A stretch of DNA of 64,000 nucleotides from Vezdaea acicularis (GCA_026025075.1 JAPEUI010000012.1:62001-126000); one strand, 5' to 3'. Counted from the first letter of the stretch, positions 20,866 to 62,328 are shown. The notes: a model not told the origin generated them from the letters alone. Translations and numbers: made by a program.

Positions 20866-22801
20866 ATGACGGACCGAGCAAGTAGAGCGTCGAGCCGACG
20901 AGGAGACTCGCAGCCACTTGTAGAGCCCAATTTCTCTAAAAGACAGACGTCGAGGTCGACCACAAGCATGCCAAAAAGAGTGACTCGAACCAGGACTCAG
21001 ACTGGTCAGGGTCACGACTCCGCTGATGTAGACCCAGAGCGAGGTGTACGAAAGAACACAAGACGTGGTCTGAGGCAAGACAGCGTAGAAAGCAACGAGC
21101 GTGCTAAGAGTAGAGATGGTAGACGTGGCACAAGAAAAGTAACAAGTCAGAAGGGTCGCGAAGGTCAGCTTGATCCCTGGAGTACTATTCCTCAATATGC
21201 TCAATTGGTTGTTCCTCTATGTGTGAGGGGAGCTCCTATAAGCTTCTTCTTGCTTACATATACTGTACTAGATCTACATATTTGGCCGCTAACATATGTC
21301 TGGCCATCTCTAGGAACATTGTCTACGGTTGATGAAATAAACGATACACAGGCTCAGCCTAATTCATCGATAATTCCGGCTTCCACACATTCAATCACAG
21401 GAAGGTCAGTGCGGCTACTCATCCTCATGTTCGGTCTCTGTGGGCCTTGATATCCATAATGTATTGTAACCGTGGATTTTTAGAGCATCGCTATCAAGGA
21501 CTAAGGAGTTGACTGATATTTGCTCTCTAGTCAAACAAAGTTCAATACTTCAGATGGCATTAGTTGGCTCAAGAGTAAGCAAGCAGGGAAGGGTGCTAGA
21601 ACGAGACAATCCGCGCGAGCCAATCCATTAGAGATGCAAGATATTCGAGTTGATCCGATCCCTCGCAAACTCCGCCCTACCGTACATGACGGACCATCTA
21701 CGCAAGTTGTATCGCCACGTAGGACTCAACGCCGCTCATACGTTCCCTCCACGGCGCCTCCAAGAGTCACGAATGAGATGGTCCCTCGAGAAGACTTGGA
21801 TGATGAGTATCAACCACGAAATAGGGACGACGACGAGTCTATAGCCGAACGATCACTCACTCCAGAAGACGTTGCTGAGCGCAAGGCCCGACAAGATCTA
21901 TCCAAGAATAAAGAGAACGCGAGACAGCCTGGACAGCGCGCTCAAGGAAAGGCCCGAAAACGGTTTAACGAAACTCAAGAAGATCGTCATAAAGTTGGGT
22001 GGGATGACGAGGAAGAGCTCATAAATGATGTTCCGCCAACTACAAGTCGGCGTGACTTGAAGCGCAAAAGAATTGTTGCGCAGGAGGATCTGCAGGAGGA
22101 TGATGACGAAGCAGACGATGGTGACGGCGTCTATCAAGATGAGGAGCGCGATGAAGAAGACAATGATGACGAAGACGACGATGAAGATGAAGAGGATGAG
22201 GAGAGCGGAGATGCGTTCGAAACTAATACCCGTCCCGCCAACCCTTCCCGTCGAAAACAAGCCCCTGTTTCTCCCCGCCGAGCTCCCTTACCGCCGAATC
22301 AAACCCAGCCAGAAACACAAGGCTCACCTCCTAAGCGGACTCGTCCCAATCCAGCTGTCGAAGCTGCTGACAATATCGATCTTGAGTCTGCTGAAGATGA
22401 TGTTGATTATCCTCCCATGGAGCTCATTTCACAACAAGCGCGCGAAAAGGTTGCGGCACACCGAGAAAACAAACCGCAAACGCGTAAACCGTGGACAGAA
22501 GCGGAGTCAAGGCGACTTATTGAGTTCATCGAGAACGATAATTACAAATGTAGTTGGGTAAAGATATCGAAAGCTGATCAGCTACTTGGGAATAGGGGTC
22601 AGGTCGGGCTGAAGGACCGGGCGCGCAACATCAAGTTCGCTTATTTGAAGTAGGTAATTCCTCTTCTCATATATGAAATGCATTAACTGACATTTTTCTG
22701 TTCGTTGCAGAGCTGGACTGGCACTTCCACTCAATTTCGACCTTGTCACACTGAAGGCATCAGAGAAGAAATTTCTGGAGGAGATGGACATTGAATATTG
22801 A
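20866..22801 (+). CDS. Protein with C-terminal Myb/SANT telobox domain (TRF/Tbf1-like putative telomeric DNA-binding protein)
   Basis: C-terminus RKPWTEAE..LI..I...SW..I....LGNRGQVGLKDRARNIK, with an acidic tract upstream. Introns at ~21164-21313, ~21405-21530 and 22650-22710 keep the frame. Confidence 0.72.
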
Positions 22802-25868: not shown

Positions 25869-28800
25869 TCGTGGGACGCAAGAGTGACTGAGGCTGCTAT
25901 ATCAACTGCATAGAGAGCAATTGATATCTGGTGAAGCCCCAATGGTATTGGCGCCAGCGATTCCCACAAAAGGTTCTCAAGCTGGTGAGTATTCTCGATA
26001 TGACGGTCTCGATGACTGATTACACGGTGATCGTTGCAGGGTAGTAAAGGTCTAGCAAGAGTGATGTGAGCATGGTCAATTATCGACGTTAGGCAGAGGG
26101 TGATAGCTGAGGGTGTGCCTCTTTCGAGGTGTGGTAGCTTTTGGAGCTCCGGTGGATCTCTAAAGCAAGGTGGCTGGGCGAATTGTCACACTGCAAAAAT
26201 CGGTTGGCGAAGTGAGACCATCACCAACCTCCCTCTTCGGCAAAAACCAATGAACGGCGACTCACCTAAATTATACAAGGTCGAAGGAAGTTCAAATGGC
26301 AAGGATTGTAGGATTCAGGAGTCGTAACCGTCTTTTACTGCCCGAGTCAGCACTTTGTCGACAGCTGTGCAAGCCTTGACGGGGGCCGAATCTCGTTCAC
26401 ACCGTGATTTTAGTAACAAGGAGAATCGTCGCACAGTCCGCCCTGCGGTCTTCCACCCCTCCGTCGCCTCACCCTGCCAACTCCACCCCCCTAAATGATC
26501 TAAAAGAGGAGAGCCGGCCGCAATGTCAAAGGATTTTCGATTGTATTGTTGAGTTTGAAGTGGATGGTGAATTCTAGCTCCCATCTCAAGGCGGCTACCG
26601 CGGCCATACAACTACTCCATCGCTGATATCTCGGGCGGCAGTAATGACGAGGGTCGCCAGGTAGTACGCCACGACCAGGGGCTTGGTAGCTGTCAAATTG
26701 TCTTGATGGACAGCCAACAGAACCAATTGCAATAGAAAGGAGCGTTCCGACTACATCGGATTGCACCTGAATCTCTTTGATACTGAAGGCTCGCACAATA
26801 TGTCCCGGGGAGTTTGTTCGGGAGGGTACGGCGGGTACACGGATTGAAAAAGCGGGAGGCTGGTTACTTTTGCAGTCGAGCTTGACCGCCATGCCTCCAA
26901 CCGATGCGTTGGCAAAACGCACGCCAGACCCAAATTCGCCGCCGTCGAAACACCAGTTGAGATTCACTGTCATCAACGGAGCAGTCAAAATTTCATCTCG
27001 CCCCGACCGCGAATTAGGGCAATCGGACACTGGGACAACCCCTACTTCGAGGACTGCTAAATTGAAGTGGTTATGTGTGACGTATCGTCCGACCCGCGAC
27101 ATTGGGGAGAGCACTTTAGCAAGACACAAATGGCCGCCACAACCCCTTTGCGGACAATTCATTGCTACTCCTGGACAAATGGGTGCTGGCATGGAGCCCT
27201 GATTGGGCAAGACCTGCGAAAGGGCTGCCCGCCGCTGGTTAATTTCGTCCAATCACTGCAGAAGTTCGCAACCTTATTTTCTCGCATTTGGCTGTGCAAA
27301 GGAAATCAAGCCTCAAGGCCTAGACTCTCGAAAAGGGCCGAGCAACTATTCATGCCCAAGACATGGGATCCGTCACGGTCGTTCTCGAATTTGTGCACCG
27401 TAAGCACAACTAATGATGAGCAAGAAAAGCGCCTTTCCGTTTGTGAGAGCTACTGCAGCATTTAGAAAGGTTATACCTCCACATCAACACCACCAACGAA
27501 TGCTCACTACTCGTGCCACCTCTTCACGTTCTGGCGCTCTTGCAACACCCTCATAGGATCCAAAACTTCTCTGCACCGCACACGGCCCGTCCTATATCGG
27601 ACTCAAACCTGGGTCATCGCTTTCCTCGATTTCGTATATGAAGCCGTACTGGAACCTCCCATTCCACCGAGCCATCGGCATTTGATGAAAGTAAGGGTCC
27701 AGTCAAAGCCCGAAGAAAGTATTTCAAATGCTCTTCATGGAAGTCATTGCCTGTTACACCAAGAAGATACCAGCCGCGAAGGGCCAGATATCTTGATTTT
27801 TGATCATGTCCGAATCTCGCAGCACGTTCAAAGCGACACTCGACGACTTCATAAACCACTCCAGGCCAATCGCCTTGCGAGCGGTAACGCCGTAGTCGAC
27901 TCTGCCGCACGACTTCCATCCGATCAGACCGTGGGACTGCCCTCGATCCTCCGCGTATAGCGGGACAGGCGGCAATTTGTGACCAGTCAGTTCTCCGGGG
28001 CCTCTTCGGCTGCCGCGCAACCCGCACACATCCCCCTTCACTTCAAGTCCTGCACGCTTGAAGCCTTCTACCTACTTCACACGTCACTTGCCTATGTCTC
28101 TGACCAGGGGTCCACAGCCCACGAACCACGGATCGGATTTGGCCCCGTATGCTCGAATCTAAGGTTCTTGCTCAAATGTTGATAGACTCCAGTAATGGTC
28201 TATAAATTCACACTATTCCCTATAGCACGTACTTGATTGAGCTAAGACGCAGAATTGTGACTCTTTATCATGACTTACCGGCATGATATCAGGCTAACCT
28301 TATAACACTTTTCATGCGCCAGTCAGGTAATTAGATCGGAGTCCACTGATTTTCTGACTGGGTCGCTTGGTCGGATCCCCAGATGTATCGAACGAGCAAG
28401 CGACACGGGCCGACTGTCCGATCAAGCCAGCACCGAGAAACCAAACACACCTTTTGCAGCTCCCCTGTCGAATTTCTTCCCAACCATGGGCAGATCGAGG
28501 CGAGGTGCCAATCAGCTTGGCTCCAGAACAAACGCCACCTGTTCGGCTTGCGTTCGCGCGGATAGCGAAGCATGGGCCCCAATCTGTCAATAGCAAAGCA
28601 TAGATCGCAAAGCTGTTGATGGCAAAGCGTTTGATGGTGAGCCCCTAGGAGCCTCTACGGGAGATCACCACGCCGTGACCCGGTTTGCAGAAGCCTCACC
28701 GAGTTCGCTATCCTTGATCCGCTTGCCTCAGTAAGGATACCTCCCTTGCATTCTTTTGTGGCGTCCACCCAATTCCAACATTGCAGTGTTCGTGGTAATG

Positions 28801-29029
28801 GAGAACGCAAAGATCAGCATGACTGGTGGAATGCGGATGCGTCTCCTAATAGGTCTCTCCTCAGGAGACTAACATTTGAAAGGGTGGCTCCCTTGATTGG
28901 GCCTATAAGCCTTGCTTATATCCTCCCATCTCCTTTGTATCGTCACTATATCATCACTTGTCAAGGCTCCACCGCATAACTACTGCTAGTGCGAGACTCT
29001 TTTGCTGTTTAATTCTTGTGTCTTTCGCG

Positions 29030-30097
29030 ATGAATCAGGAAGATATACCTATACTAGAGCGAGACGATTATGACGATCTGCTTCTAAGTTCGTCAAATTA
29101 CTCTCGTTCGAGCTCAGTACCCCTATGCGCAGAAGTTCCCCCAAGAGTGGAGACGATATCTGGACCCACATCTTCAAAGCGCCCGTGGGCGCTTTCGAAC
29201 GCAACGTCTCTTTCCTTGAAAACCGACATTCCACCCATGAAAAAGAGGTCGACTTCACCTCCTCCGCCACGAGCGCCACCGTCTTCTCCCTTACCCCATG
29301 CTGAAGAACACCTCAAGAGGTTCGACCCGGTCTCTGTTAGTCGTGCAATGGCCTCACTCGCACGAAGGCGCCACTCCACTGCGACTAGTATCACTATACC
29401 TAGCATGACGTTGGACGACTCATCCGTTGATGGAACCTTTGTTAGTAGCATGGATAACGGAGATTGCTGGTCCCCAAAGAGCTTCGAGCGCGAAGGGCGC
29501 GAGCATGGTCGTCCAGATTCAGTCACGCTTGCCTTGGAAGAGTCCGACAACCAGTTGTCGATCTTGTGTGGACGACCCGGTCATCGCTCAACGACGTCAA
29601 GCATTATCGTTCAGAAAAGCCCCAAGATACCCTCACGTCTGGATACAGCGCACTCGCAGACGTACTCTGTCGAAGCTCTCCATGGATCTCAAATATTTGA
29701 AATGTCGGAGTATACGCCACATCCAGTGCACAACATGCGACCGATTGCCTCGTTGGAGCATCCTCAGGTCGCCTCAATTTCGCATGAGCTCTCACGTTCA
29801 CAGTCTTTACCAAAATTGTCCCTGTTTCCATTAAATAATCAGGGACATCAACGAAGGCCATCCCCGCCTCCCGTACGTTCCATCTTTGAGGACGACTCCT
29901 CAGACGATGGTGACGATGTAATGGAGGTCGAAGAGATTCCATATTCTCGTTCTACCAGGTCGCCGCTAAAGATAGCTAAGAGATGGGGGCTTTCGGGGTC
30001 CAGGCATAGGCTCAAACAGAGGTTTAAAAATATATTTCGACGAATACCCAGCTGTCCATATTTGAAAAAGCAGTGTCGAACATCGGCGGCGCACTGA
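29030..30097 (+). CDS. Hypothetical Ser/Pro-rich disordered protein
   Basis: 355-codon ATG ORF with an acidic patch (SIFEDDSSDD) and a basic C-terminus; no recognisable domain. Confidence 0.55.
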   Translation: MNQEDIPILERDDYDDLLLSSSNYSRSSSVPLCAEVPPRVETISGPTSSKRPWALSNATSLSLKTDIPPMKKRSTSPPPPRAPPSSPLPHAEEHLKRFDPVSVSRAMASLARRRHSTATSITIPSMTLDDSSVDGTFVSSMDNGDCWSPKSFEREGREHGRPDSVTLALEESDNQLSILCGRPGHRSTTSSIIVQKSPKIPSRLDTAHSQTYSVEALHGSQIFEMSEYTPHPVHNMRPIASLEHPQVASISHELSRSQSLPKLSLFPLNNQGHQRRPSPPPVRSIFEDDSSDDGDDVMEVEEIPYSRSTRSPLKIAKRWGLSGSRHRLKQRFKNIFRRIPSCPYLKKQCRTSAAH

Positions 30098-45769: not shown

Positions 45770-48491
45770 ATGAGGCTCAGCTTCTTTATGGCGGGCCTGT
45801 TGGCAAAAGTCATCTCAGCAAACATCATTTTCAATCACGTTCCGCTGTCCTGTGACCGCATGAGTCAAGCATACACTGGCTGTCTTCGAGGACAACATTG
45901 TACTGAGAATGGAACGTAAGTATTAGCTTCCTTCAAGCCTGAATTAGACTCTGACAAATTCATAGATGCGAAGTGGCCTCAGGAGATCTTTACCCCTCCT
46001 CATTTCGACCTACAACGGGTGAATTGAGCAAACGTGATTATTCAGTAAATGGACAATGCGGACCCAACAATGGCAATCTATTGTGTGACCCAAACGCCAC
46101 TGGCTATACGGGGACCTGTTGCTCTCAATACGGATGGTGTGGAAACACTCCGGCCCACTGGTAGGTGTCCCAGCGTCTACAGAGCCAGGGGAAAATTTCT
46201 GCATTGATACGCCTGGAAGCATGGCCCCTATCGGTCACTTGAGCGGTCTACCGCAGCTTCTAGGTGTAGCAATATGGATTTTCGTACTTGGCTTGTCAGG
46301 TCTGTAGACGTTTCCACTAACTTAAGTTTTAGTGGCGACGGTTGCGTCTCTGGATGTAGTTCATCTAGCCCTTCGTCTTCTGCTGCTCCCACCCAGCCAA
46401 GCTCCAGTACCACCCCCCGCTCCGATGGCCGCTGTGGGCATGACTTTGGTGGCGCGACCTGCGATCCCAAAGGCGCTTATGGCGGCTGTTGTTCCCAATA
46501 TGGTTACTGTGGCTCTACTGACGGACATTGTTCACCAGCAAATGGATGCCAAAACGGATGTGCCGGTGCATCGCAGCCTTCATCAGGAGGAAGTAGTATA
46601 GCACAAAGCCAGCCTCCTTCTTCGACAACAACTGGTGAGCCCGTTATATCATCACCATCCTCCACATCGCAAGCAACAAATGGTGGCGTTACTACCGATG
46701 GGTCGTGTGGCCAAGCGAACGGCGGAACAACTTGCGGCAACTGGCCGCAGGGGTCTTGTTGTTCCATGTATGGGTACTGCGGCAATACAGCCTCCCACTG
46801 TGGGGCCGGATGCCAGTCTGGGCCATGTGCCGGTGGCGCAGCTGCACAAGCGCCTGGCCCTAGTCCGGCCCCAGCAAACCCTAATGGAGGCTCGTTCCAG
46901 ATTGTTGGACAATCTGGGGCTCCTGCCATGCACGCAGGGCTTCTTCCTAACGGGCGTTTCTTCGTCCTCGACAAAGTGGAGAATTATACTCAGATAAAGT
47001 TATCCAATGGTCAATACGCCTATTCTACCGAATATGACCCGGCCACGAATACCTACGTACCCCTTTCCTACGTAAACAACGCTTTCTGTGCTGGGGGATC
47101 GTATCTTGCCGATGGTCGAGTAGTGTCACTAGGAGGCAATGCTCCACTTCCTGATATTGACCCAACTGTAGGGAATGGATTCGACGCTATCCGCTATCTC
47201 TCTCGGTCGTCATCGGACGCCAGTCTTGATGGCCAAGGTTGGTCCGAGCCAGGTAACAAATTGGCAAGCAAGCGTTGGTATCCTTCTGCCCAAACTCTAC
47301 CTGACGGCACTGTCTTTGTTGCGTCTGGGAGTCTTAATGGTTTAGACCCTACAATCTTTGCGAACAATAACCCAACGTGGGAACTCTTGGATTCTCAAGG
47401 GGTCTCCAACGGCGTCAGTGTTCCAATGGATATTTTGGCCAAAAATCAGCCATACTATGTAAGTGTATATTCTCATGACATATATATGAGAAGAATGCTG
47501 ACGAGGTTTTGATCAGATGTACCCATTTATCCATTTGATGAGCGATGGAAACCTCTTTGTGTTTACATCTAAATCATCGGAGAGCTTTAATGTCGGCAGT
47601 AAAACCACCATCAAGGCCTTCCCCGATCTTCCTGGCGATTACCGAACTTATCCTAATACTGGTGGTAGCGTAATGCTACCCCTCTCAAGCAGCAGTCAAT
47701 GGGCCCCTGACATCGTCGTCTGCGGCGGCGGCGCCTACCAAGATATCACTAGTCCCACCGACCCCAGCTGCGGTCGTATCCAGCCTCTTGGCGCAGGAAC
47801 ATGGGAGATGGACTCAATGCCCGAAGGCCGCGGCATGGTTGAGGGCACGATTCTCCCTGACGGGACAGTCATCTGGCTTAATGGCTGCGACCGTGGTGCT
47901 CAAGGCTATGGTCTAGGTGCAAGCCCAACATATGAGGCCCTAATATACGATCCCACCCTGCCCCTTGGCAAGCGATGGACTACTGGTGCTTCATCAACCA
48001 TCGCTCGCATGTATCACTCTGTTGCATTCTTGCTGCTCGATGGCACCTTGCTTGTCACCGGCTCCAACCCAGTCGAGCAGCCTATTCTTCAGCCTTCTGC
48101 GCAGAACCCCTATGTCACCGAATTCCGTGTCGAGGTGTATACTCCGCCCTACCTATCAGGCGATAACGCGAAAAAGCGCCCTACAAATGTCCAGCTTTCG
48201 TCGACCGCTTTGAAAGCAAATGGAGCGCAATTCACTATCTCCTTTACGTGTCCCCAAGGTGCGCAGGGTGTGAAGATCTCATTGTACCATGGCGGTTTTG
48301 TCACGCACTCGGTACATATGGGTCATCGGATGGCCTTCCTCGATAATACAGGCTTCAACGCCGGATCGACGTCACAGACTGTAACCGCCACAATGCCGCC
48401 GAGCTCGAATATTGCTCCACCAGGACCGTATGTCGTCTACGTAGTGGTCGATGGCGTTCCTTCTGTCGGACAGACGGTGCTGGTCTCGTAG
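45770..48491 (+). CDS. Secreted copper radical oxidase (CAZy AA5_1, glyoxal oxidase-like) with three N-terminal CBM18/hevein chitin-binding domains
   Basis: Signal peptide; three CG...C...CCSxYGxCG...HC modules; catalytic motifs NAFCAG, RWYP, RTYP, RMYHS and FVTHS; C-terminal APPG.Y domain; three introns. Confidence 0.93.
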
Positions 48492-49758: not shown

Positions 49759-51985
49759 TTAAGTCTCAATTGCGTAAGATTGCGTCGAAGTTGGCCAACC
49801 AGGCATGATGCTGGCGTAGAAAGCCGGATCTGAAGTCAGGAAATAGTCAAGATCAAGCTCACCCGAGAGGTCATCCTGCATTTGGAAGTCTTGGTCTTGA
49901 TAGGGCGTAGCCTCGGGAGGGCTCAGCACACTCTTCGCTAGAGCTGGGGTTGCGTGCAGTCGTTTGATAATATGCTCGCTCCTCAGCTTCATCTTTTGGA
50001 AGACATATCTGAAGTGCCAGAACATGTCTTTCTGCTCTTCTCCTGATGGTGTTCGGCTGACAAGCTCGCCCATCCGGTTGGCTAAAGAGTCGAGGTAGTA
50101 TCCTAGATTTGCCGTCTCTTGTAAAGTGTTGACGTCCAGCGAAAGGCCATTCACGCCGGCTGCTATCTTACTTAGAACAATCGTCGTATATGTCAACCTC
50201 GTAGCTTGCATGATGGTACCGTTTCGATTTTCTATTAACGGTAGGCTGAGATGGTAATCTAAAAAGGCCTTTGCTGCGTCAAGACAGCCAAGAAGCATGT
50301 TCATCTGTGTTACAGACGAGCGAGACGGATCAGAGTAAACCGGATCATCTCGAACGTGGAGTCCAATTTCGTGAATATAGACTTTGGTATGGTAGAATGC
50401 ACTCATGATAGAGACTGTCATCGCTTTAGCTCTTTCACTCTTTTTGATACTCTCATCATGACAAGGTGCGATTTCACTTACCCATGCTTAGAGCCTGTAA
50501 AGGCAGAGATTCTTTGAGACTATGCAGCTTGGACTGGAACGTCTTGTGTGAATAGTCAAGCTGAGATAGCCCCAAGGCATAGGATCCCTCTGACTCTTCG
50601 TAGCCGAACGTACTACTCACTTCTTCGGCCAAGCGCTGTATACGCACATAGTGTTTCAGAAAGCTATCAAAGGGCGATCGTCCGCTTTCAGCCAACACTT
50701 CACAGCACTCTTCGACGTGACTGCTGAACTTCAAGTTGTTTGGCCTTCTTAATGCAAGAGACAAACTAGTGGGATTGTCAGTTACGTGCTGAATAAAGAG
50801 CCTTGACGCTGGCTTACCAGGAAGAGACGTAGTAGCAGCCAACAAATGCTCTCATTCCTTCATCATCATCTACAGGCTCATACCTATCAGTCATTTCAGA
50901 ATCTGCAACTTCGAGCAGATCAATCGTGGTCTGCTTTGACTTCGATTTTCTGGGAGGCTTCGTCAGGCCTAGATCTACCGCCATGGCAATGGCAAGCTGC
51001 ACCAGTTGGTAGATTTGCTGACGATCAGGATGGAAATGGAAGTGGTACCTTTCGTGCCGTTAGTATGCATGTCGTATACAGAAGAGCAGCAAGGAAATGT
51101 TCATATTTTTCTTACCAGGCAAGGTAAACTATCAAACCTTGGAGTAAATCAAGGCTTTTCTCCGCCTCGAATATCACTTTGACACTCAGCGTCTCTCGGA
51201 GCTCTCTTTCGAGAAGAAAGGAGAGCCTTTGATTTGCCTGTGATGTTGTAGCAAGTATCGCAAGTAGCAGGATAGGCCTTTGTGTCCGAAGCTCCTCGAG
51301 GGAAAGGTTTGAGGGTAGAAGCACAAAAGGGAAGTTCGCCTCGAAGGCTTGAAAGCTTTGTATCAAACTTTCCGCCTCCGAAATTGTCAGTATGCCTCGC
51401 TGTATCACATCTCGCCGAAAGTCGCTACTTGATCCCGGAGACAGAGCTGAGGGGCTGAGATCATCCACAAGCGTCTCAGCCGGTGAGAATTTCTCTGAAG
51501 AGTCATTGGATCGTATCGAATCATCTGTGACAGTCCCTGGCGGCGGCGGCGTAGGCTCCGCCGATGCACTCGTTGGGCGAGTCCCGGCTGTAAGCAGAGC
51601 CACTATACCATCGATCTTCTTCTCCATTTCTGCAACCCGTCTAGTTCGAAAGTTACGTTAGCTTCTGTGGAAAGTAACTACGAGATATATCCCGATGATT
51701 TGAAGATATATACGCACGTTTTTGTCTGGCGTGCTCGTCTCGATCGTGACTGGGCCTCCACAAATATGCATTCTCTCCCGCTCCTCGAACATCTAGATTA
51801 CGTATGAGCATATGTGATAATCCGGTATACGAAACTCGTGCAACATACTTCTGGCATTTCCCCTGCGGTTCTGAGCTTGGTAAACAGCGGGACTTGGAAG
51901 CGCGACAAGCCTCGCATGATCGAAGAAGGTTTGGTTTCTTGGTCGCATCCCGAGTCTCCATGGCTGGGTTCACAGTGGTCGTCAT
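49759..51985 (-). CDS. Zn(II)2Cys6 fungal transcription factor with middle homology region
   Basis: CEACRASKSRC...GKCQK|CSRSGREC spans intron 51793-51848. Further motifs FPFV, KSLDLLQGL..Y.AW, AVDLGL and RAFVGCYY. Multi-exon. Confidence 0.9.
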
Positions 51986-52820
51986 CAAGCCCGGAAGTGG
52001 GGACAACTCTGCTTGCTTTATGCGTATTCTGCACAAAAGCTTCGAGTAGTAACAAGCCGGACGGGTAGCATTGACCAATGCCGGTAATCCTCCAGCGAAC
52101 CACGTTCTGCGTAGAGTGTGGGGTAGAGGGTCGCGACGGGAACCGGAGATGGGCTGGGCCGAGCCTTAAGAAAGCAAGCTCAAGCCGCGGAGGCTTTGTC
52201 TCGCCACTAACACGAGCAAACTCGACCTCGGATTCGGGGCAACAGTCGTGACACTGGAGCTACCACCGCTTTGATTGATGTCGGCTCTGCCTTTGTCTAT
52301 AGAGTCTGGTCGATTTGAGTGATCAGAAGGCTTCCATCGGCTGAACCGCGCGGAAGTGTCCGTCTTAAAGCACGACCAGAGCTCACATGTTTGGTAGCGT
52401 CAGCGAGGATTTTCTTCGTGGTACGACTACGCCTCTGACCGACTGCCGACAAGGGGTGCAAGGAATCCTTTTCTTCTTGTTGGATGTCTATCAAACACTG
52501 ATCGAAGGTCTTCACAGTAAGCTAGATCCAGCCCTAATCCGGCATTAGAGTCCTCGTATTTCACCGGGACCATATGCTTGTCAACGGGCATACGGTTGCG
52601 CATGGATGGGGGCTGAGGTCTCTCCTGCATTGTCACCGCAAGTAAGATCTTAATGGCCGTTACGCCGACGGCGTACATCCCCCGCCCCAGAGTATGACCC
52701 CGGCGATCAGCTCGTTGCTTATTCCGATGCCACCATATCTCTTTGAGCTGTTTACATGGACGCCTTGAGCTCCCGCAAGATTTCTTTCTTTCAAGCAATG
52801 ATAGCATATTTCTTCGCGTC

Positions 52821-54200
52821 ATGAAGCGCCCTATACCCCAGCTTGAGGATTATGGCATTTCGCCCCATTACGGTTTTCTGCCATCCGAACTACCGCTTGA
52901 GGTCTTACCAGATCCATACTATGCCGACTGGGAGGTGATAGTGGCAGGTTTACCAAACCTGCTGGAAAGTAAGAGATTGAGACACGCTATCAATAGGCTC
53001 CCAGTCTTGTCCATCTCGCGACTCTGTTCAGAGCCAGAATGGAGAAGGGCATATTCACTACTAGGTTTCATGGCCCATGCATACATATGGGGAGGTGATA
53101 GGCCTTGCGGAGTAAGAACGTAGAGTTGCCCTCATAATAGAACATACGCTGATACCACGAACCAGCGGTTGCCGCCTGCTATTTCAGTTCCTTTTCTTGC
53201 AGTTGCAGAACACCTTGAGATCCCTCCAGTTGCAACTTATGCAAGTGTTTGCCTCTGGAATTTCAAACCCAACTATGTACATGCCAATCTCAATAGCATC
53301 GACGACCTTTCGACATTTGCAACATTCACGGGAACCTTAGATGAGTCTTGGTTCTATTTGGTTTCCATCACGATTGAATCACACGCGGCTCCAACCATAC
53401 AAATGCTGCTCGATGCAGTCGCTGCTGTCCGCACCCAGGATGTCCTGACTGTCACTCTTTGTTTACAAGCTTTTGCGGAGACGCTAGAGGACCTTGGAGA
53501 GCTCTTGGAACGCATGCACGAGAAATGTGACCCACACGTCTTCTACAATAAAATTCGACCCTACCTTGCTGGCAGTAAAAATATGGCAGAAGCCGGACTA
53601 CCACGAGGAGTGATCTACGATGACGGAACCGGCAACGAAGAGTACAGACAATATAGTGGAGGCAGTAATGCTCAAAGCTCGTTGATTCAGTTCTTTGATA
53701 TCATGCTAGGCGTTGTCCATCGACCGACTGGTCACGGCGCACGAGAGATCTCTGCTGTATCCGCCGTTTCAGCTACAGCCCGCAGTCTAGACCACAATGC
53801 ACGACTAGACTTTCTCAAGGAGATGCGATTCTATATGCCTGGTCCCCACCGCCGCTTTCTCGAAGACGTGTCAAAGATTGCGAACATCCGCCAGTTTGTT
53901 GAGGGCCGCAGCTCAGACATCTATCTCCGCGCCGCTTTCAACGACTGCCTCGCTATGCTTCGCTCCCTTCGAGATAGGCATATGCGAATTGTATCTCGCT
54001 ATATTGTCAAAAAGTCCAAAGATACTCGTCCACATATTCAAGGTAATGGCGCCGTCAATCTTGCTTCCCTAGCGACTGCGAAGGGAGGTAAGAAGCCAAA
54101 ATCCGTGGACCTCAAAGGGACTGGCGGGACTGGTCTCATACCTTTCTTGTTGCAGGTCCGGAACGAAACCGGTGGTGACTCGATGGTTTTGGCTAGCTAA
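52821..54200 (+). CDS. Indoleamine 2,3-dioxygenase (heme, BNA2/IDO family)
   Basis: Motifs YGFLP, AHAYIWG, FTGT.DESWFYLVS, FY..IRPYLAG, YSGGSNAQSS, YMPGPHR, proximal His in R..H..IVSRYI, and GTGGT. Intron at 53112-53165. Confidence 0.95.
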
Positions 54201-54495
54201 AGCGAATGAATCCCATTTTAGTGTACTTTTCTTCTAGTAGACGTGTCATTCCATCGATTTGTTTGCATCATCGCCAATAGATAGATATATCAGTATACGT
54301 GTCAAGTCATTCAGTATATATATGATGTACGATGGAAGAACTAATCAACAAGCCGCACAAGTGAAATCGAAAAAAAACAAAGCCAATCATAACTTATTCT
54401 CTACTCGATCTAATACCGCGCAGTATGCGAAAGTGATATCTCATACAACAGGAATGGACGCTATCTAGGAGACGTCAAAAGTGGGCCGGGAATTT

Positions 54496-56637
54496 TCAAA
54501 CTTGGACTGAGAAGTCAGTGTACTGAGCTAGGCCCGGGAAGAACATCCCCAGCAGAACGTAGGTGCAAAACAACGCCAGAACCGCAGTCCTCACAAGTGA
54601 AGAGAAGCCATTGATTACCTCCGTGATTGAACCTTCAGAACTCCCTTTATCACCTATAAGTTTTGTTTGTGCAGCATTGATGGAAGCCTCATCTCGAGCC
54701 CGGCGATCTTTAGCAACGCTGGCGTAGACCTAAGACGTGTAAGCATCTAGTCTTGTACGCAGTGAAGGAATGATACTTACTCTAGGATACATTGGTCGTA
54801 GCCATTCCTTCATGAAACGCACAGGGGTAGGAAGGCCTTCAACATGCCCCGAATGCAAGCCCATGTCTCCGAGAAGCTCATCGGTGAAGAGCGTGGTGTG
54901 TGTTCCAATATGTACACCCTTCTTGCCATTAGAGGCGTATGACTTCCCTTGCCATGCGTGAAATTCATCGATGCCTAGACACTAGTTAGCGCGACGCTAT
55001 GGTAACGGCGTGACATCAATTACCTGATTCCACTGTTTGCTGGTCTGGCACGTCAATTTTACCCATAAAGTAGTCTGATATCCAGTGGGCGGTGACGTGA
55101 GCCACAATAGGGACAGTCAAACTGTAGTTAAAACCGTTGAAAGCGATATTACGGTAAGGCATTTGCTTTCCGCTCACATCTTTTCGTCTGTGAATGGTTC
55201 CAGTCGGAGCTATTAGCCGGTGAAGTCTAATATAGTCAAAGCTTGTCTTGTCTTCCACGGTAGCATCCGGGAGTACAAGTCTTAGGGTTTTGATAGTGTC
55301 ATCTGTGAAGAAAGGTAGAGCCTAGGAGTTGAGTTAGTTACCACATACAGCGTACTTCCAGTAGAAATTATGCATACCAGCTTAAACCCTGTAGCAAGAA
55401 GGAGGATGTCGGCATCTATATTCATCTTTTCCTCGTTTCTCCCTTTCACATAGATCTGACCGTCTTGAACGCCATCAAGACAACCTTCGATAATCTTGAT
55501 ACGACCACTTTTCACGCATTCTGTGAAGCCAGGGGGCTCAACGTGAATGCCCCCAGACAAAGATTCAGAAAGAGGGTGCTTTGCTTGAAGTTCTCGAAAT
55601 TTTTGGTGTTTCAGGGTCTTGACAAAGTCGTCCTCAAGGATTCTGAAGATATTTCGGGTGCACCACTTCCCAATAGCACTATCGGCAATAAGACGATGCA
55701 CGTTGTCAGGATGGCGGGCGTACGGCATCCACATACTCTATAACATTTGGCGTTAGCATTCGGATGCCACTCACGAGCTATGAGTTACAGTACTTACGAT
55801 GAATCGGGAAAAGAAAACCTTCTCGAAAGGCACCGTGCCTCGAAAGATCTTTCGCGGTACAAGCCAATGGGGCCTCCTGTAAAGTAGGTTGACTTGCATC
55901 GGCTTCCTATCTTTGGTTCTCCAGGTTCCCAATGCAAGTTGTGTTGCGAGGTCCACGCCTGACTTTCCCGCTCCAACTATCATGACGCTGTCCGCATTAA
56001 CGACATTACTCCGAAGCTTCGCTTCACCCATATCAGCGGAATGGTAGACAATTCCATCATATTGAGAGATCTGAGCGTCGTCTAAGGGAGTGAGCTTCGT
56101 GTTATAGAGCCCTGTACACACAACTATGTAGCCGAATTGTCGTTCGAAGGTTCCTTTAGCAGCGACGCCCCTTACAGTCCAAGTCAAAGTCGCAGCGTTC
56201 CAACTAATATCATCGACCTGGGTCTGGCATCGGATACGCTTTGTGAGATCAAAATGATCCGCAAAGCTGTGAAAGTAGCGATTCACATTTTGAGCAGATA
56301 CATGGACCCCAGATGCCCGAATGTCCGGAGGATAAGGGAATTCAGGAAATTCGTAAGTTAGTAGAGGTGAGTTGGTAGTAAGACCCTCATAGATCTGATT
56401 TTCTGCCCATACCCCTCCGATAGTGGTATTCTTTTCAAATATTGTTACGGAATCAAAGAATCCATTGGAGTCATGGAGCAAGACTTTCGCGGTTGTCAAG
56501 CCATGGAGCCCTGATGAGGTCGAAAATGTTTAGTCATCAAGCTACTCGCGTGTCCGAGGATCTAACCTACCGGCGCCGATTACCAAAGCGTCTCGCTTTC
56601 CCCATCCAGCTGCGATATCAACATGGTCAGAAGCCAT
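54496..56637 (-). CDS. Class B flavin-containing monooxygenase (FMO-like) with C-terminal hydrophobic anchor; multi-exon
   Basis: FAD motif VIGAG|LHG, FEK...IGGVW, FMO-like fingerprint YDGIVYHSADM, NADPH motif VGAGKSG, and LATGF. The last exon ends LVRTAVLALFCTYVLLGMFFPGL...V*. Confidence 0.88.
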
Positions 56638-57366
56638 TGCAAATGTCAATTCAGTTGCTTTGAATCTGACACTGATCTGTTTCCTACAGGAAGTACCCAA
56701 GATATATCATGTCGGCTGGTAAGAGCGACCGATAACCCGATCTCAGGGGGTGCCAGAGGGCATGGAAGTTCGGAGTATGCGGTCAAAGCTCACCGCGCAG
56801 GTCCGTCACTCCGACAAGGGTGCGAGGTCAGGATGCCACATAACCTCGCATGATGTACAGCGGCAAGGGTTTACCGCCGACATTCAAACGTAATGATCGT
56901 ATTGTCACTCTTTCAACCGGCCAGTCAACACCCATCAGTTGACCTCCGCTGTTGTTTCAGTGAGGGCTCGGGGCTATGCGGAGTGTAAGGAGCAACTCCT
57001 ACGCCGTAAGCCTATTTCACATGCCCAATCGGGGAGGCATTCCCTAGTGTTGGTTATGGTGTGTGCGTCCCGGCGCCTTGCAAAGGCCAAGGGGTTTTCT
57101 TCTTTCCATACCGTATCCTTGCTCAGAACTTCAATTGCGTTCGTATTGGCTCAAAGCCTTTGTTTGGCTATAAGTGCTCTTCTCATCATGCACGACCATG
57201 GCGCAAGCCCAGGACTATTGGTCTTGCCCACATTCATAACCAGTGCGTTTTCCTATTCAATTTCAAGACTAGTTTGGCTTCTTCACCATCTTCATACAAA
57301 GTTTGCCCATCTCCTTGCTAAGTGCGAAGACACCTCAATAGAATCTACTACCTCGTACCAATAAAC

Positions 57367-58609
57367 ATGTCGACTTCATTCCACTCCAGCAGCGTCCCCT
57401 CAATGATCTTGATTCGCGAGATCATTGAAGACATTGCAAACCATTTCCTCTTTCCGTATGGGTTGATATTTGGATTGGTACTCCTCACGTCACCGGGCCT
57501 ACTAGCTCTCTTTGCTCAAGTTGGGGGAAAGCAACTCCCTTTGTCCATCTCACCAAAGAAATACGTATCTTGGGCAGACGACGTTGAAATCAAAGAAAAG
57601 CTCAAGACCCAATCGCCTCTTAGAGATATCGAGTGCCCGTATGAATATATTCTACAGGTCTATGGCCGGCACCATTTTACAACTATGGTGAATATCTTGG
57701 ACCCAAAACTGTCAAAGAAGGATCCTGTTCTATTCAAACTCATTCTTGATGTCATGGATGTAGTTCATTTTGGAGCAATCTTAGTCGACGACGTCGCTGA
57801 TAACAGCACGCTACGCAAGGGCAAAACAGCTGCTCATTGTATTTACGGATCCAGCGAGACAATCAACCGGGCTTATTTGCGTATCTTTGAAGTTATTACC
57901 GCCTGCAAGAAGCAGAGACCGTCAATGATCCCGTTTATCCTCGACAATTTGACTCAGATTCACGAAGGTAACGACTGCTCCCTTTGTTTCCAATCATGAT
58001 ACTCATCTAGTCTGTCAGGTCAGGACATTTCCTTAGTCTGGCGTCGAGATGGGTTTCCCGAAGCTTTGCAAAAAGACCAAGCCCTCGATGCCTACAGGCA
58101 CAGCGCCTTTCTAAAGACTGGAGGTCTTTTCAGACTGCTTGGTCAACTAGTATTCGCAAGCCACGAAAAGGATGAACTCATGAGCAAGGTTGCGTAAGTT
58201 CTAGGACATTCAAAGGAGCTATTCTCGTTGCTGACGTGGTGACTGTAGATGGTACTGCCACCTCCAGAATGACTGCAAGAACATTTACTCGAAAGACGTC
58301 ATTACAGCGAAAGGCGCTCTCGCTGAGGACCTTGAGAATGGCGAATACAGCTTTCCGATCGTCCTCGCTCTTTGTTCCTCCCCTGCCACAAGCAAATTAA
58401 TTAAGAGAGCATTTCAGGCACGGCACAGGAGTTGTGTAGCTGGCCGCGATCGGCAAATCAGATCTGCTTTGGCCGTCCTGCAAAGTGACTGGGTAAAGGG
58501 CGCATGCATGAGTGAGCTTGAATCCTTGCAGAACGACGTCTCGGAATTTGCGGTTTTATGGGGCCGCAATGAAAAGATGACTCTTGGGTCGGGTACACTC
58601 AAGGCTTGA
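57367..58609 (+). CDS. paxC-like: PaxC/IdtC-type indole prenyltransferase (trans-isoprenyl diphosphate synthase fold)
   Basis: Motifs CPYEYI..VYGRHHF, LVDDVADNS.LRKGK.AAH.IYG.SET.NRAY, GQDISLVWRRDG, LKTG.LFRLLG.LV, LQNDCKN, AEDL.NGE and C-terminal WGR.EK, all characteristic of IdtC enzymes. Introns at 57968-58018 and ~58194-58248. Confidence 0.9.
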
Positions 58610-60066
58610 GGAGCACAATGACAGATCGACGGATTCACAACAAATTCACATGGTTCACTACTAGATTATACAAGTCTTTCTTATTCGCGATAATGACTTC
58701 TTTGGTTGATTTAGGCGCTTTCTATATACTTGCATGCATACAAGCTTCTTAGAAAAAGTAAAGATCAGTACGATTGCTCGGTTTTGTCCATGCGTTGATG
58801 TTGGTCAATGCTCTTTCAACCGTAGCACTACTCTCTTGATATCCTAACGCGCGTTAATTCATTATTCGCCCTAGGCGAATCAAAATCGTTTAGAAATTAA
58901 ATGCGAAATCCGGTGCTTGAGCTGCCGGGTTGTCGGAACCATACAGCGTGTCCGTCCGATGTCGACACAACAAACTTTGGCACTAGTGCCGTCCTCGGAT
59001 ACGCTAGCAAGGGCTTGCTGCATGGCATTAGCCTAACCCTGCCACAGATCACCCTTTCACCGCCCCCGGCGCTAGAAAACGTTGTATGATGCTGCGTCAG
59101 CGCTACACAACCAGTTGTTAGACGGTATCGGCTTCGTTGTTCCAACCTCCGTTGCGGAGGAAGCACCAATAGTTGTCAGCCCTAGCACCCCCATCGATGA
59201 TCCCTGTCCGACGACCTTCCACGGCTGATTCCAAAGCGCATACAGATGAGTGAAGACGAGCTGATGCCTAGGTCGGGGTAAGGCCTGGGAGCGGACCGAT
59301 GCGGACCCTTTAGCCTCCCGCGTTTCTTCACGGGCCTTCCGCTCCCCCGTTCTCCTTCATGCCGAGCCTAGCTAACCGGAACGGGGTGATTCAATACTTT
59401 GTCTTTCTTAGTTCATAGCTAAGCACATTTGGATCGGAGTAATACGTTGCTCTGTAAACTACTCTATGTACTAATGCTCTTTAACATGATGCTTAATTTA
59501 ATTTGAATCTGTCTCTCTCAAGATGGACAACATTCGCGTGAATCTGGTGCACCACGTAACACTGTGCGACCGTTACACAGCGGCTGATGTCATATCCAAT
59601 AACATTTCAACAACTTAAAATGCCGTCAGAAGAGGAGAGTCCCCACAGATGTGGATGTTTGAGATAACACCGACTCCAGTACTCAGGGCTGCAAAAATGC
59701 CATCAATTTGACTTGTGTGCAGTAAGCATTACGGATTACGAGATGACTTCTATGCCTCGACAGGCTATGTTTGACAGTCGCTACAGAATGCCGACCCCTA
59801 CGTCCTTACCGCATACCTTGTTCGTTGAGCGGCAAATGCAGGGGCTTTTACGGCCCTATCACCCCCAAAAAAGCAACTAGCAAATGTAGGCTTGATCGGA
59901 CTACGGCGCTTCTGGGGCCGTTTGATCGGGCCTTTTCATTGCTCATCGTCCCATCAACTTCATCTAAACATCTTTCTTCCATCGCATTGAAAAAGAAACC
60001 CTTTCGCAGCCACACACCAAACAAGAAAGACCCATACTAGTACAGTGCTGACGAATAAACGCCACG

Positions 60067-60984
60067 ATGCATCTTCCCGTTGGCGAAATAGATGCGATCA
60101 ATATGCCGACTGAGCTATACCTCACAGTGCAAGATGGTCTCAATGTAATGGCAGGTATCTTCTGGACTGTTGCCTATGTACTCTACATAAGACAATCCTT
60201 CCGTGATGAGTCCTATGGGATGCCGCTGCTCTCCCTGTATGCATGAAAGATCCATCTGTATATTGAAAATACAGGATACTGACGTACTCGATGATAGCTG
60301 CGCGAACATTGCCTGGGAGTTGATTTACAGCGTCTTCTATCCCCCTACCGTCGCAGACCAAATTGTCTTTTTCCCCTGGCTAATCATCGACATGGTACTC
60401 GTCTATGCTACAATCAAATTCGGGCCCAAAGACTGGTCTCACTCTCCGTTGGTTGCGCAAAATTTAGGTTCTATCATCGCCTTGGGTTCTGTTATGATGG
60501 TGGCGCTGCACTGGTCATTTGCACAAGTTTTTGATGGAGACTTTGGGCAGGCTGCGTACTGGAGCGGCTACGCGTGTCAAGCAGTTGTCAGCTGGAGTGC
60601 CATCTCACAGCTCATTTCAAGAGGCAATACTAGAGGTCACTCTATCGGCATATGGTAGGTTCTGCCCTATCCGTTGAAGCTTAATAAACCTTCTGCTTCC
60701 TCGATACTGACGCTTACTTTGCACTGTTCAGGTGGTGTCGATTCCTCGGTACCTTGTGCGTTACAGCCGTCTTTATGTGGCGGATATACCATTATCCCGA
60801 CTCATACTATTATGTTTTGACCCCAATGGCCGCATATCTTTTCGTGGCTCCTTATATAGCCGAGCTGGCATACCCTGTGGTCTTCTATTATATTCAGAAG
60901 CTGGAGAGAGCAGACGGGCAGGTCAAGACCAACGGTTCAGTTGATCCACACCTGAGATCGGCGAAGAACATCAAGCTCTTTTAG
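60067..60984 (+). CDS. paxB-like: PaxB/Pyr4-family integral-membrane terpene cyclase
   Basis: Motifs W...Y...IRQSFRD.SYGMP...L|CANIAWE, W..ID, KFG...W.HSP.V and L..RG.TRGHS..IW|W.RF.GT; very hydrophobic. Introns at 60237-60297 and ~60656-60731. Confidence 0.92.
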
Positions 60985-62328
60985 GTAGTCTGCTAACGCA
61001 TAGACTGGATGGCTGAACAGAGCGCTTATGCCACATGTATGGCGAAAGTAGAAAAGCGTAGCAGGAACTAGGCAACCTACCGGGCAAGGGAAACGGCTAG
61101 ACTCATAGATTATTCTTGATGTATGGGATATCATGGCAAATTTCAAGTTGGCGATAAAAGTGCTGTTATTCTTTGGTTACTAAATTCGTTGGTACATGGG
61201 TTGTGACTACGCGCGCAATACTGTGGTTCACTAGAATAACCCTCATTAAAAATTATCCATCTCTAAGAAATAAAGAAGGAGCCTATTTATTTGTGGGACA
61301 AAGTTCATGAATCAAACTTAATAATTTTGGATTATTTGGGTGATTTCACGCTTCGAGGGATCGGTGATGGGGGCTCACGGAGAACGGTAAAACTTTGTCG
61401 CGCCGAAGATCCGAAGCGACTCCGTCAATGTGTAACGCCCATGCCCTACAACAACATATCGACCCCCCTCATCACACTGCATCGGACCTCGGTGTCATCA
61501 AGGATGGTGTAGCCTGTACCTTCTCATTCTACTGTAGGCCACCACGGCCCCGCTCCCCATCGAACTGCAAAGGTCGGTGGTCAAAGCGCCAGCTTTTCAG
61601 CCGTGTCGTATTTACGCCATGTCCTTGTCATCGCTTAGAGAGTGGTAACCGCCGAAACCAGGGATTTAAATGCATACAACCCCTATCCTTGCGTCACCAA
61701 CATTAGTCTCTCGACAATGCCAAGTGATCATGGTCGGACACTATTATTTGGCCCTCCTAAGCCACGCTCACACTTTCGGTCGGACTGAGGTGAGCCAAAA
61801 CGCCTCCCGATACGCCTCCCGCCGCGGGCCGGCGCGTCAAACGAGACGACCCTTGGATAATACGATGATGAGGGGCCACGTCTTGGCAGTCCCCAATCTT
61901 CCAGGCTTACAGAGAGGGTCTAGACTGTGCCAAGCTGGATTGCCCCGAAGTCGATGATCTAAGACTGATTACTCAAATGTTTGCGGTCATACTCCAGAAG
62001 CACGGGGGCAGCCTACGATTGCCGTATGGTCAGACCTGGATGCGAAAGGGGTATATCGGCTTAAGAATTATCAGCTGATTCGCTAAGGCGGCCCCTGGGG
62101 CACAGATAAGCTCAGGTCTGCAGGTGGGATTATCGCGCTTATACCATTCATGCCACCACTCCTGTGCGGGCGGTATGGCCGGGATGATTCCGCTCTTTTT
62201 CGTTTGGCTGAGATTATTGTGGCCAAAGCGACTAACTCTGGCATAGTACTAAGAAATTTGTTCGCTACGCTCTATGAGAAGCTACAGTAATCGCCGAGCT
62301 CTTAGTAGTCGAGGAGTACCAACACAGC

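Follow-up and report, generated by a model that had tools for sequence, protein, structure and literature searches.

The locus described here raises the question of whether a group of genes without the epoxidase of known indole-diterpene clusters can encode a terpenoid pathway of its own, and which of its members would belong to that pathway. Five intact genes are present at positions 49759-60984 of the window, by which we mean the whole 64-kb stretch of DNA that was analysed. They encode a Zn2Cys6 regulator, an IDO, a class B FMO, an IdtC/PaxC-like prenyltransferase (PT) and a Pyr4/IdtB-like cyclase, and they are laid out as two divergent pairs (regulator/IDO and FMO/PT) followed by the cyclase. 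The initial annotation had described five intact-looking adjacent genes in this arrangement; all of them were found where it had placed them, with intact reading frames:

49759..51985, minus strand: Zn2Cys6 regulator gene, about 6 exons, start codon at 51985 and stop at 49759-49761
51986..52820, no strand: divergent promoter region of regulator and IDO, 835 bp between start codons
52821..54200, plus strand: IDO gene, two exons, intron at about 53112-53165
54730..56637, minus strand: class B FMO gene, about 5 exons
56638..57366, no strand: divergent promoter region of FMO and PT, 729 bp between start codons
57367..58609, plus strand: PT gene, exons 57367-57967, 58019-58193 and 58249-58609, 378 aa, internal stops absent
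60067..60984, plus strand: cyclase gene, exons 60067-60236, 60298-60654 and 60732-60984, 259 aa without stop

The splice sites of the PT gene were read directly from the sequence, as was the intron-split Zn2Cys6 motif of the regulator (CEACRASKSRC...GKCQK and CSRSGRECIF). A Pfam search with four exon pieces of the regulator gave no matches. The cluster is flanked on its left by a glyoxal oxidase gene and housekeeping-type genes. The DNA on its right had been called gene-poor, and none of the 18 ORFs of at least 60 aa located between 60990 and 64000 carries a Pfam family (38 small ORFs scanned).

The PT matches the Pfam family polyprenyl_synt (PF00348) on two exons (E 2e-11 and 3.9e-4), and its first DDxxD motif is present as DDVAD. 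From an alignment made in the course of this analysis we derived three motifs, GQD(L/I)SLxWRRD, LQNDCKN and ETxNRAY, that are all found in the window PT, in AtmC, in C. paspali IdtC and in the A. striatus PT, whereas four GGPPS-like sequences carry GQGxDLFWRD-type and RDDYxNL-type motifs in place of the IdtC versions (two other GGPPS-like sequences align poorly at the second motif). In a tree of 18 rows rooted on GGPPS-like proteins, the window PT is located inside an IdtC-like clade with a support of 100/100. These motifs and this placement bear out its initial assignment as a true member of the IdtC/PaxC family. Within the clade it groups with Bcpax1 (88/97), as sister to, and outside of, the trio of characterised IdtCs (99/97). 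It is 61% identical to Bcpax1 over 283 residues, 46% to AtmC and 44% to C. paspali IdtC, with a range of 42-46% across AtmC, C. paspali IdtC and the A. striatus PT. Judged by sequence, the PT is thus set off from the characterised IdtCs in a sister clade with Bcpax1. We know of no characterised enzyme in the Bcpax1 clade, so that its acceptor (indole) and its chain length are inferred here from enzymes that are 42-46% identical.

PTs of the Bcpax1 clade might use another aromatic or a non-aromatic acceptor instead of indole, and the locus would then belong to a new meroterpenoid class rather than to the indole terpenoids. The position of the window PT outside the characterised trio, in a sister group with no characterised member, would fit such a change of acceptor. 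So would the surroundings of the first Asp-rich motif, where the window PT reads HFGAILVDDVADNS and the three characterised IdtCs read HLCL(I/M)LVDD(I)SD. The relevant sections of the Botrytis papers also merely predict an 'unknown indole-diterpene'. Against this, every signature that distinguishes IdtCs from GGPP synthases is present in the PT, and a survey of fungal clusters, in the part that deals with these enzymes, considers PaxC-like PTs to be a mark of indole sesqui- and diterpenoids specifically (PMC11109268). We consider a non-indole acceptor improbable, and continue with indole as the preferred one.

The cyclase, initially described as PaxB-like, is of the Pyr4/IdtB type, as judged from two matches to Pyr4-TMTC (PF25129; E 6.8e-43 at profile positions 52-170 and 5.6e-12 at positions 171-226); its N-terminus is encoded by exon 1, and a search for related sequences gave four unnamed ones. 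An IdtC-family PT with an adjoining Pyr4/IdtB-type cyclase is what the window has in common with the canonical indole-diterpene core (idtG/paxG, idtC/paxC, idtM/paxM and idtB/paxB of the pax, atm, ltm and idt clusters). It differs from this core by the position of its PT in a sister clade, by having a class B FMO as the conserved oxygenase, and by the lack of a class A FAD epoxidase (IdtM), a dedicated GGPP synthase and a P450. In the portion of a published account that defines it, the core of IDT/IST pathways needs condensation, epoxidation and cyclisation (PMC10595974). Among 41 ORFs chosen from the 119 of at least 110 aa in the 64-kb window, we found no PaxM-type FAD monooxygenase, no second polyprenyl synthetase and no P450. 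A FAD_binding_3-type match, which would indicate IdtM/PaxM, was absent among the scanned ORFs up to base 64000. As for IdtG/PaxG, the window contains a single polyprenyl_synt gene, as does each related locus, and no dedicated GGPP synthase. The absence of PaxM, PaxG and P450s that had been reported at the outset therefore stands for the scanned ORFs of the window, right flank included; IdtM or IdtG could sit past the right end of the window, or be unlinked. A PaxM-type domain was likewise not found in relatives, among 48 and 66 ORFs scanned from loci L001, L003, L006, L017 and L019.

Bcpax1, to which the PT is closer than to any other named sequence, belongs to a Botrytis cinerea cluster (BCIN_05g05630-05700) that is listed with 8 genes. 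According to a supplementary listing, this cluster combines a Pyr4-type cyclase with a PaxC-type PT, as the window does (PMC11109268, supplement file 8). Unlike the window, it has a GGPPS adjoining Bcpax1, as stated in an excerpt of PMC12804166. No published description of the cluster reported here was found in the literature.

The proposal that the flavoenzyme is a class B FMO unrelated to PaxM agrees with its Pfam match, its motifs and its nearest solved structures. Its largest exon matches FMO-like (PF00743; E 4.7e-18), and two GxGxxG motifs are present, GAGSSG (split by the first intron) and GAGKSG. The FMO motif is FxGxxxHxxx(Y/F), and the Baeyer-Villiger fingerprint ends in W. The window protein reads YDGIVYHSADM at this site, with G and H in register, Y at the first position, M at the last and no W. 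The closest solved structures are FMOs, the best being 5nmw (E 1.8e-12).

The linkage of these genes was examined in 27 related metagenome loci that represent nine PT lineages, the bulk of the loci coming from one accession series and reducing to two lineages. Linkage to the FMO was judged in only the three lineages with sufficient flank. In the lineage L002-L011, a minus-strand FMO, a plus-strand PT and a plus-strand cyclase follow each other in the order seen in the window, at 54-67% amino-acid identity to it; of its 10 loci, 9 show the FMO and 8 the cyclase, the others having no flank on the side concerned. Within this lineage, the head-to-head layout of FMO and PT is seen in loci L003-L010. 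FMO orthologues with 55-61% identity on the largest exon adjoin the PT in two lineages besides that of the window, and 18 of the 27 loci carry a homologue of the cyclase downstream of their PT. Locus L001 has PT and FMO, with no cyclase found within 9.4 kb. PT and cyclase occur together in L012/L014-L022 (8 of 10 loci), L025 and L026; in L012/L014-L022 no FMO was found in the visible 10 kb upstream of the PT, and a P450 lies downstream. The trio is therefore not universal.

One could argue that adjacency is meaningless, the FMO, PT and cyclase being unrelated neighbours that serve separate pathways. The lineage that lacks the FMO and the one that lacks the cyclase are in line with this, and so are the promoters: the regulator/IDO promoter, which contains five CGG..CCG-type sites, has no k-mer of at least 9 nt in common with both other promoters, and comparison of the cluster promoters gave no motif common to all. 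However, gene order and orientation are retained at 54-67% protein identity, and PT and cyclase are paired in 3-4 further lineages. Such pairs also recur in the survey cited above, whose tabulated figures give a PaxC-like PT in 131 of 1050 Pyr4 BGCs (PMC11109268). Chance adjacency appears very unlikely to us.

Neither an IDO nor a regulator homologue was found in any of the 27 loci, even at E<1. In the syntenic lineage the flank on the FMO side, where visible, carries an SDR and an MFS transporter instead. As FMO, PT and cyclase recur together and the other two genes do not, the conserved unit is FMO-PT-cyclase, without IdtM; and as this linkage is kept in distant relatives, the FMO would belong to the pathway. 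Of the five-gene synteny considered in the initial annotation, the part formed by these three genes is thus conserved in distant relatives, whereas the IDO and the regulator are not. In a relative that is about 92% identical (run X7), short contigs touch all five genes. The locus is, in our opinion, probably a compact terpenoid cluster without IdtM, in which the three conserved genes form the functional unit.

In the pathway that we propose for this unit, the PT, from the sister clade with Bcpax1, would transfer a polyprenyl chain onto an indole donor. GGPP or FPP drawn from primary metabolism would provide this chain and, by analogy with characterised IdtCs, the donor would be indole-3-glycerol phosphate. 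The Pyr4/IdtB-type membrane cyclase would then close the chain, and the class B FMO would be the conserved oxygenase of the pathway. Since no PaxM-type epoxidase was found among the ORFs scanned here and in the syntenic relatives, the FMO may either provide the oxygen that normally comes from IdtM or, as we prefer, oxidise the electron-rich indole part, with the cyclase starting by olefin protonation. The latter option has a precedent in the mos cluster (MosC, a UbiA-type PT; MosD, an FMO; MosB, a Pyr4-type cyclase), which produces 4-hydroxybenzoate-derived drimane meroterpenoids by a similar three-enzyme logic with no epoxidase. [quoted passage not shown] The two systems differ in the fold of the PT (UbiA as opposed to polyprenyl synthetase), in the flavoenzyme (MosD is a decarboxylating hydroxylase homologue, the window enzyme a class B FMO) and in the aromatic substrate.

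It remains to place the IDO and the regulator. The IDO matches Pfam IDO (PF01231; E 2.8e-31 and 5.1e-123) and retains the proximal haem His and the equivalents of human IDO1 Y126, F163, S167, R231, H346 and the GTGGT loop; the equivalents of F164 and A264 are changed to Y and N, respectively. In a tree it branches outside the 46 other IDO rows, of which 39 are named and 7 unnamed, with an end branch of 1.22 as compared with a median of 0.13. Its identity does not exceed 60%, whereas six orthologues from four classes share 60-81% with each other. Of 134 near-invariant columns, 23 differ in the window IDO; in five control orthologues the number is 0-6. Residues 51-102 of exon 2, around the helix that carries the F163 and S167 equivalents, account for ten of these differences. 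The long branch, the low identity and the changed columns led us to reject a conserved 'alpha-type' housekeeping orthologue as the identity of this gene. The IDO appears to be an atypically diverged copy with its haem and tryptophan-binding residues retained, and because the copy is so unusually diverged, its recruitment into the cluster is possible. Such recruitment fits the divergence, the gap of 530 bp to the 3′ end of the FMO gene and the pairing with the Zn2Cys6 gene. Both the IDO and the regulator are lineage-specific neighbours; they may be members of the pathway, although we lean somewhat against it.

Two roles can be considered for an IDO that belongs to the cluster together with the regulator. 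It may act on tryptophan, either supplying N-formylkynurenine or kynurenine, or draining it and so pushing flux through indole-3-glycerol phosphate, or serving as a duplicated, product-insensitive resistance copy against an indole terpenoid that inhibits IDO. Both the retained residues and the divergence of the copy are compatible with this. The R231 equivalent and the GTGGT loop presumably hold the carboxylate and the ammonium, that is, the amino-acid part, of tryptophan. The retention of these and the haem residues argues for tryptophan rather than a terpenoid indole as the substrate. In a published survey, an IDO is present in 118 of about 38,000 fungal BGCs, where it acts as a kynurenine supplier or possibly as a resistance copy (PMC7448278). 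The terreazepine (tzp) and nanangelenin (nan) clusters resemble the window in having a diverged IDO beside secondary-metabolite genes, a duplicated one in their case; TzpB is given in the same excerpts as 41-45% identical to A. fumigatus housekeeping IDOs (PMC7448278). In tzp and nan, however, the kynurenine made by the IDO goes to an NRPS, whereas no NRPS domain was found among the scanned window ORFs and the window has no other kynurenine-using enzyme. In addition, the core trio occurs elsewhere without an IDO, and in relatives the window IDO does not accompany the terpenoid genes. This role in the cluster therefore seems rather unlikely to us as a complete account.

Alternatively, all five genes could form one pathway, in which the IDO cuts the C2-C3 bond of a prenylated or cyclised indole to give a 2,3-seco, kynurenine-like or quinoline-like terpenoid, the FMO being a further indole oxidant. 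2,3-seco indole diterpenes occur in nature. The IDO gene is adjacent to the other genes and paired with the Zn2Cys6 gene, its product has diverged, and the five genes are all touched by contigs in the 92% identical relative. Yet the IDO is missing from all 27 related loci, a promoter motif common to the genes was not found, and the kept R231 and GTGGT equivalents would be pointless for a substrate without an amino-acid part. We regard this pathway as decidedly unlikely, and the seco, quinoline-like or oxindole product put forward in the initial annotation as speculative. If the IDO is a member, it would most likely still act on tryptophan, whether to divert it, to provide N-formylkynurenine or in the role of a resistance copy; cleavage of the terpenoid indole ring is less likely.

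With FMO-PT-cyclase as the preferred unit, a bolder proposal can be formulated. Throughout the clade, the FMO would have replaced IdtM or would trigger cyclisation via oxidation of the indole C2=C3 bond, and in the present lineage a neofunctionalised IDO would open the terpenoid indole to yield a seco-indole (kynurenine-like) scaffold. We give this proposal little credence as a whole; if true, it would mean that a seco-indole terpenoid scaffold is made by enzymes not previously tied to indole terpenoids.

The five genes that the initial annotation described as intact-looking, and as arranged in two divergent pairs plus a cyclase, were confirmed by Pfam matches, motifs and spliced frames, all five reading frames being open and spliceable:

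49759-51985, - strand: Zn2Cys6 regulator, intron-split motif CEACRASKSRC...GKCQK / CSRSGRECIF
52821-54200, + strand: IDO, Pfam IDO E 2.8e-31 and 5.1e-123
54730-56637, - strand: class B FMO, Pfam FMO-like E 4.7e-18
57367-58609, + strand: prenyltransferase (PT), three exons, 378 aa
60067-60984, + strand: cyclase, three exons, 259 aa, Pfam Pyr4-TMTC E 6.8e-43 and 5.6e-12

The head-to-head pairs are regulator/IDO and FMO/PT, with 530 bp between IDO and FMO, and the cyclase starts 1.46 kb after the PT. Pfam is silent on the single exons of the regulator because an intron interrupts the Zn2Cys6 motif. The FMO carries the motifs GAGSSG (spanning the first intron), YDGIVYHSADM and GAGKSG, and its closest solved structures are flavin-containing monooxygenases. 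For the cyclase, a protein-atlas search gave only generic Pyr4 clusters and a word-based homologue search only 4 relatives, all unnamed. When the regulator/IDO, FMO/PT and PT/cyclase intergenic regions were compared as promoters, no k-mer of at least 9 nt was common to them; one 8-mer occurs in all three and has 7 copies in the window.

On the left, the five genes are bordered by housekeeping-type genes and, directly beside the regulator, a chitin-binding glyoxal oxidase. This glyoxal/galactose-oxidase-like gene (46208-48491, +) encodes two Chitin_bind_1 modules, Glyoxal_oxid_N and a GO-like E-set. The DNA on the right is gene-poor, as first proposed, with no recognisable ORF within 3 kb in a small-ORF scan up to the window end. 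We scanned 41 ORFs chosen from the 119 of at least 110 aa, together with 38 small gap ORFs. None of them matched a PaxM-type FAD monooxygenase, a second polyprenyl synthetase, a P450 or an NRPS, which bears out, for these ORFs, the reported absence of PaxM (class A epoxidase), PaxG (dedicated GGPP synthase, GGPPS) and P450s. Three long frames of the window, 23043-25901 (-), 28880-30094 (+) and 21517-22650 (+), of 953, 405 and 378 aa, matched no Pfam family at E<=0.001.

An exhaustive profile-free search with the PT gave 22 cluster representatives at E<=1e-30 and then a second tier, whose members by cluster look-up include IdtC of Claviceps paspali, AtmC of Aspergillus flavus/oryzae and the A. 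striatus prenyltransferase. The nearest named relative is Bcpax1 of Botrytis cinerea.

Protein identity of the spliced window PT to its relatives
Botrytis Bcpax1: 61%
AtmC: 46%
IdtC (C. paspali): 44%
A. striatus PT: 42%
two GGPPS-like sequences: 27-30%

In the alignment, the window PT and the characterised IdtCs have in common the motifs GQD(L/I)SLxWRRD, LQNDCKN and ETxNRAY, whereas the corresponding motifs of GGPPS-like proteins are of the types GQGxDLFWRD, RDDYxNL and TINxAN. Rooting the tree on the GGPPS-like rows gives a single clade for the IdtC-like family (support 100/100), in which the three characterised enzymes make up a subclade (99/97). The window PT belongs to the sister group (88/97), together with Bcpax1, three proteins from Pleosporales and some unnamed proteins. 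By its motifs and tree placement, the window PT is therefore assigned to the IdtC family, on a branch without any characterised enzyme. Its N-terminus contains a hydrophobic stretch, GLIFGLVLLTSPGLLALFA (Kyte-Doolittle mean 2.1; 57367-57620, +). Hydrophobic N-termini are also present in several proteins of the Bcpax1 clade, in AtmC and in the A. striatus PT, so this feature is not peculiar to the present cluster. Because of these stretches, IdtC-type enzymes may be membrane-anchored beside the membrane cyclase.

Scanning of metagenome contigs with the PT alignment recovered 27 loci (L001-L027) with flanks of up to 10 kb per side, falling into 9 lineages at 95% PT protein identity, and these were searched by tblastn with the window exons. 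In the lineage L002-L011, FMO (-), PT (+) and cyclase (+) follow the order and orientation seen in the window, the FMO being detected in 9/10 loci and the cyclase in 8/10; where either gene was missed, the flank on that side runs out within 39, 841 or 91 bases. Compared with the window, the FMO exon is 55% identical, the PT exon 59-67% and the cyclase 54-58%. Beyond the FMO, at the position of the window's IDO, these loci carry an SDR and an MFS transporter. In L001, PT and FMO share a strand and are separated by 4 kb. Conservation of order and orientation at such divergence argues that FMO, PT and cyclase are likely to work together.

Two observations count against this trio. No cyclase was detected by tblastn in the 9.4 kb visible in L001, and the FMO is not universal. 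PT is followed by cyclase in 8/10 loci of the lineage L012/L014-L022 and in the single loci L025 and L026, with no FMO at any of them, despite ample flank in that lineage (10 kb upstream visible in L019 and L020). FMO linkage could be assessed in three lineages only, most loci come from one accession series, and the flanks of L013, L023, L024 and L027 are too short for judgement. Downstream of the cyclase in the FMO-less lineage, a domain scan identified a Fung_rhodopsin-domain membrane protein and a P450 (L019:13969-14388 and 16045-17313; L017:5347-5766 and 7471-8429), which may represent an alternative oxygenase set. In L001:1-20059, PT and FMO appear as islands of 0.40-0.49 G+C in DNA of 0.27-0.36 G+C; these A+T-rich surroundings, with hardly any long ORFs, look RIP-degraded or repeat-rich.

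Homologues of the IDO, the regulator and the glyoxal oxidase were found in 0/27 loci, even at E<1. The initial annotation had placed all five genes in one pathway; the linkage of FMO, PT and cyclase is conserved, but the locus survey gives the IDO and the regulator no support as pathway members.

To our knowledge, all characterised indole di- and sesquiterpene pathways begin with a PT, a class A epoxidase and a cyclase. According to PMC10595974, the core requires a condensation, an epoxidation and a cyclisation, carried out by E/C, M and B enzymes, and PMC12038925 describes the first four IDT steps as highly conserved. Where the canonical clusters have a class A epoxidase, the window and its syntenic relatives have a class B FMO: IdtM and IdtG were absent from the ORFs scanned, and no PaxM-type domain was detected in L001, L003, L006, L017 and L019, from which 48 and 66 ORFs were scanned. 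Possibly, idtM and idtG are unlinked or lie just outside the window. According to PMC11109268, PaxC-like PTs occur in 131/1050 Pyr4 BGCs, and in the mos system PT, FMO and Pyr4 cyclase are enough without an epoxidase. The supplement of that paper assigns a PaxC-type PT and a Pyr4 cyclase to the Bcpax1 BGC (BCIN_05g05630-05700); the Botrytis papers only predict for Bcpax1 an 'unknown indole-diterpene'. A GGPPS adjoins Bcpax1 in Botrytis (PMC12804166), whereas no second polyprenyl synthetase is present among the window ORFs scanned. Streptomyces Ord1 (PMC12510300) was set aside as a comparison, being bacterial.

In the pathway we propose, the PT would make 3-prenylindole from GGPP or FPP of primary metabolism and the cyclase would cyclise it. 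The class B FMO would either replace IdtM or oxidise the indole part while the cyclase protonates an olefin. Because of class B chemistry and the mos precedent, we prefer the second option.

The IDO is strongly diverged. A word-based search gave 2477 relatives, of which the best non-self match is 60% identical; six orthologues, representing four classes, share 60-81% identity with one another, and for exon 2 of the window IDO the median identity across 119 relatives is 56%. The tree we built combines the 7 unnamed top matches with 39 named orthologues, which come from Sordario-, Leotio-, Lecanoro- and Eurotiomycetes. The window IDO falls outside all 46 other rows on a branch of 1.22; these rows track species classes with short branches (median 0.13). 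Of 134 columns with a conservation of at least 97% across 81 full-length orthologues, 23 are changed in the window IDO, against 0-6 in five control orthologues. Ten of the changed columns lie at exon-2 residues 51-102, around the helix bearing the equivalents of F163/S167. The window IDO nevertheless retains the proximal histidine, along with counterparts of human IDO1 Y126, F163, S167, R231 and the GTGGT loop, the last two of which bind the carboxylate and ammonium groups of tryptophan.

The protein thus reads as an intact but atypical extra copy, whose paralogue status we infer from the tree and the column test, and its substrate is probably still tryptophan or a close amino-acid analogue. 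The IDO had been proposed to cleave the indole ring of the product; a diverged copy is indeed present, but with its tryptophan-binding equivalents kept, cleavage of a terpenoid indole would fit less well than a supplier, flux-control or resistance role. Such roles are discussed in PMC7448278, which counts IDO in 118 of about 38,000 BGCs. The boldest reading combines two proposals, an FMO that stands in for IdtM or sets off cyclisation and an IDO that opens the indole ring of the terpenoid; this combination we consider improbable.

The divergence of the IDO, its 530-bp distance from the FMO and its pairing with a Zn2Cys6 gene are features expected of a recruited cluster gene. Public runs containing this stretch of fungal DNA are labelled moss or soil metagenomes, and no RNA run is listed among them. 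In X7, a run about 92% alike, short pieces touch all five genes, which is likewise expected of a recruited IDO; no piece joins two genes. In X5 (about 93% alike), one contig spans 46000-53096, from the glyoxal oxidase through the regulator to the 5' part of the IDO, and stops a little short of the IDO intron. The next contigs start at 61962, leaving 53097-61961 (8.9 kb: most of the IDO, FMO, PT and cyclase) uncovered at 80% likeness, with no bridging contig. The gap may mean that close relatives differ in whether they carry these genes, or it may be a mere assembly break.

PaxC+Pyr4 BGCs and IDO-containing BGCs are already known as categories. The initial annotation did not recognise the combination from any described cluster, and our searches brought up no published FMO+IdtC+IdtB cluster, whether accompanied by an IDO or not, in full-text literature (covering few subscription journals, and with MIBiG outside its scope); a literature search on the Botrytis neighbour genes likewise yielded no such cluster.

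Indole diterpenes and sesquiterpenes are potent modulators of ion channels and mitosis. Here, an FMO is linked to an epoxidase-less PT-cyclase unit across lineages at about 55-65% protein identity. The missing epoxidase and the linked class B FMO point to a different entry chemistry, and hence to different scaffolds. Three small genes make a cheap and good target for reconstitution, and the adjoining diverged IDO offers a testable case of ring-cleaving tailoring, precursor control or self-resistance. A different entry chemistry would concern a clade to which Bcpax1 of Botrytis cinerea, a locus long unexplained, also belongs.
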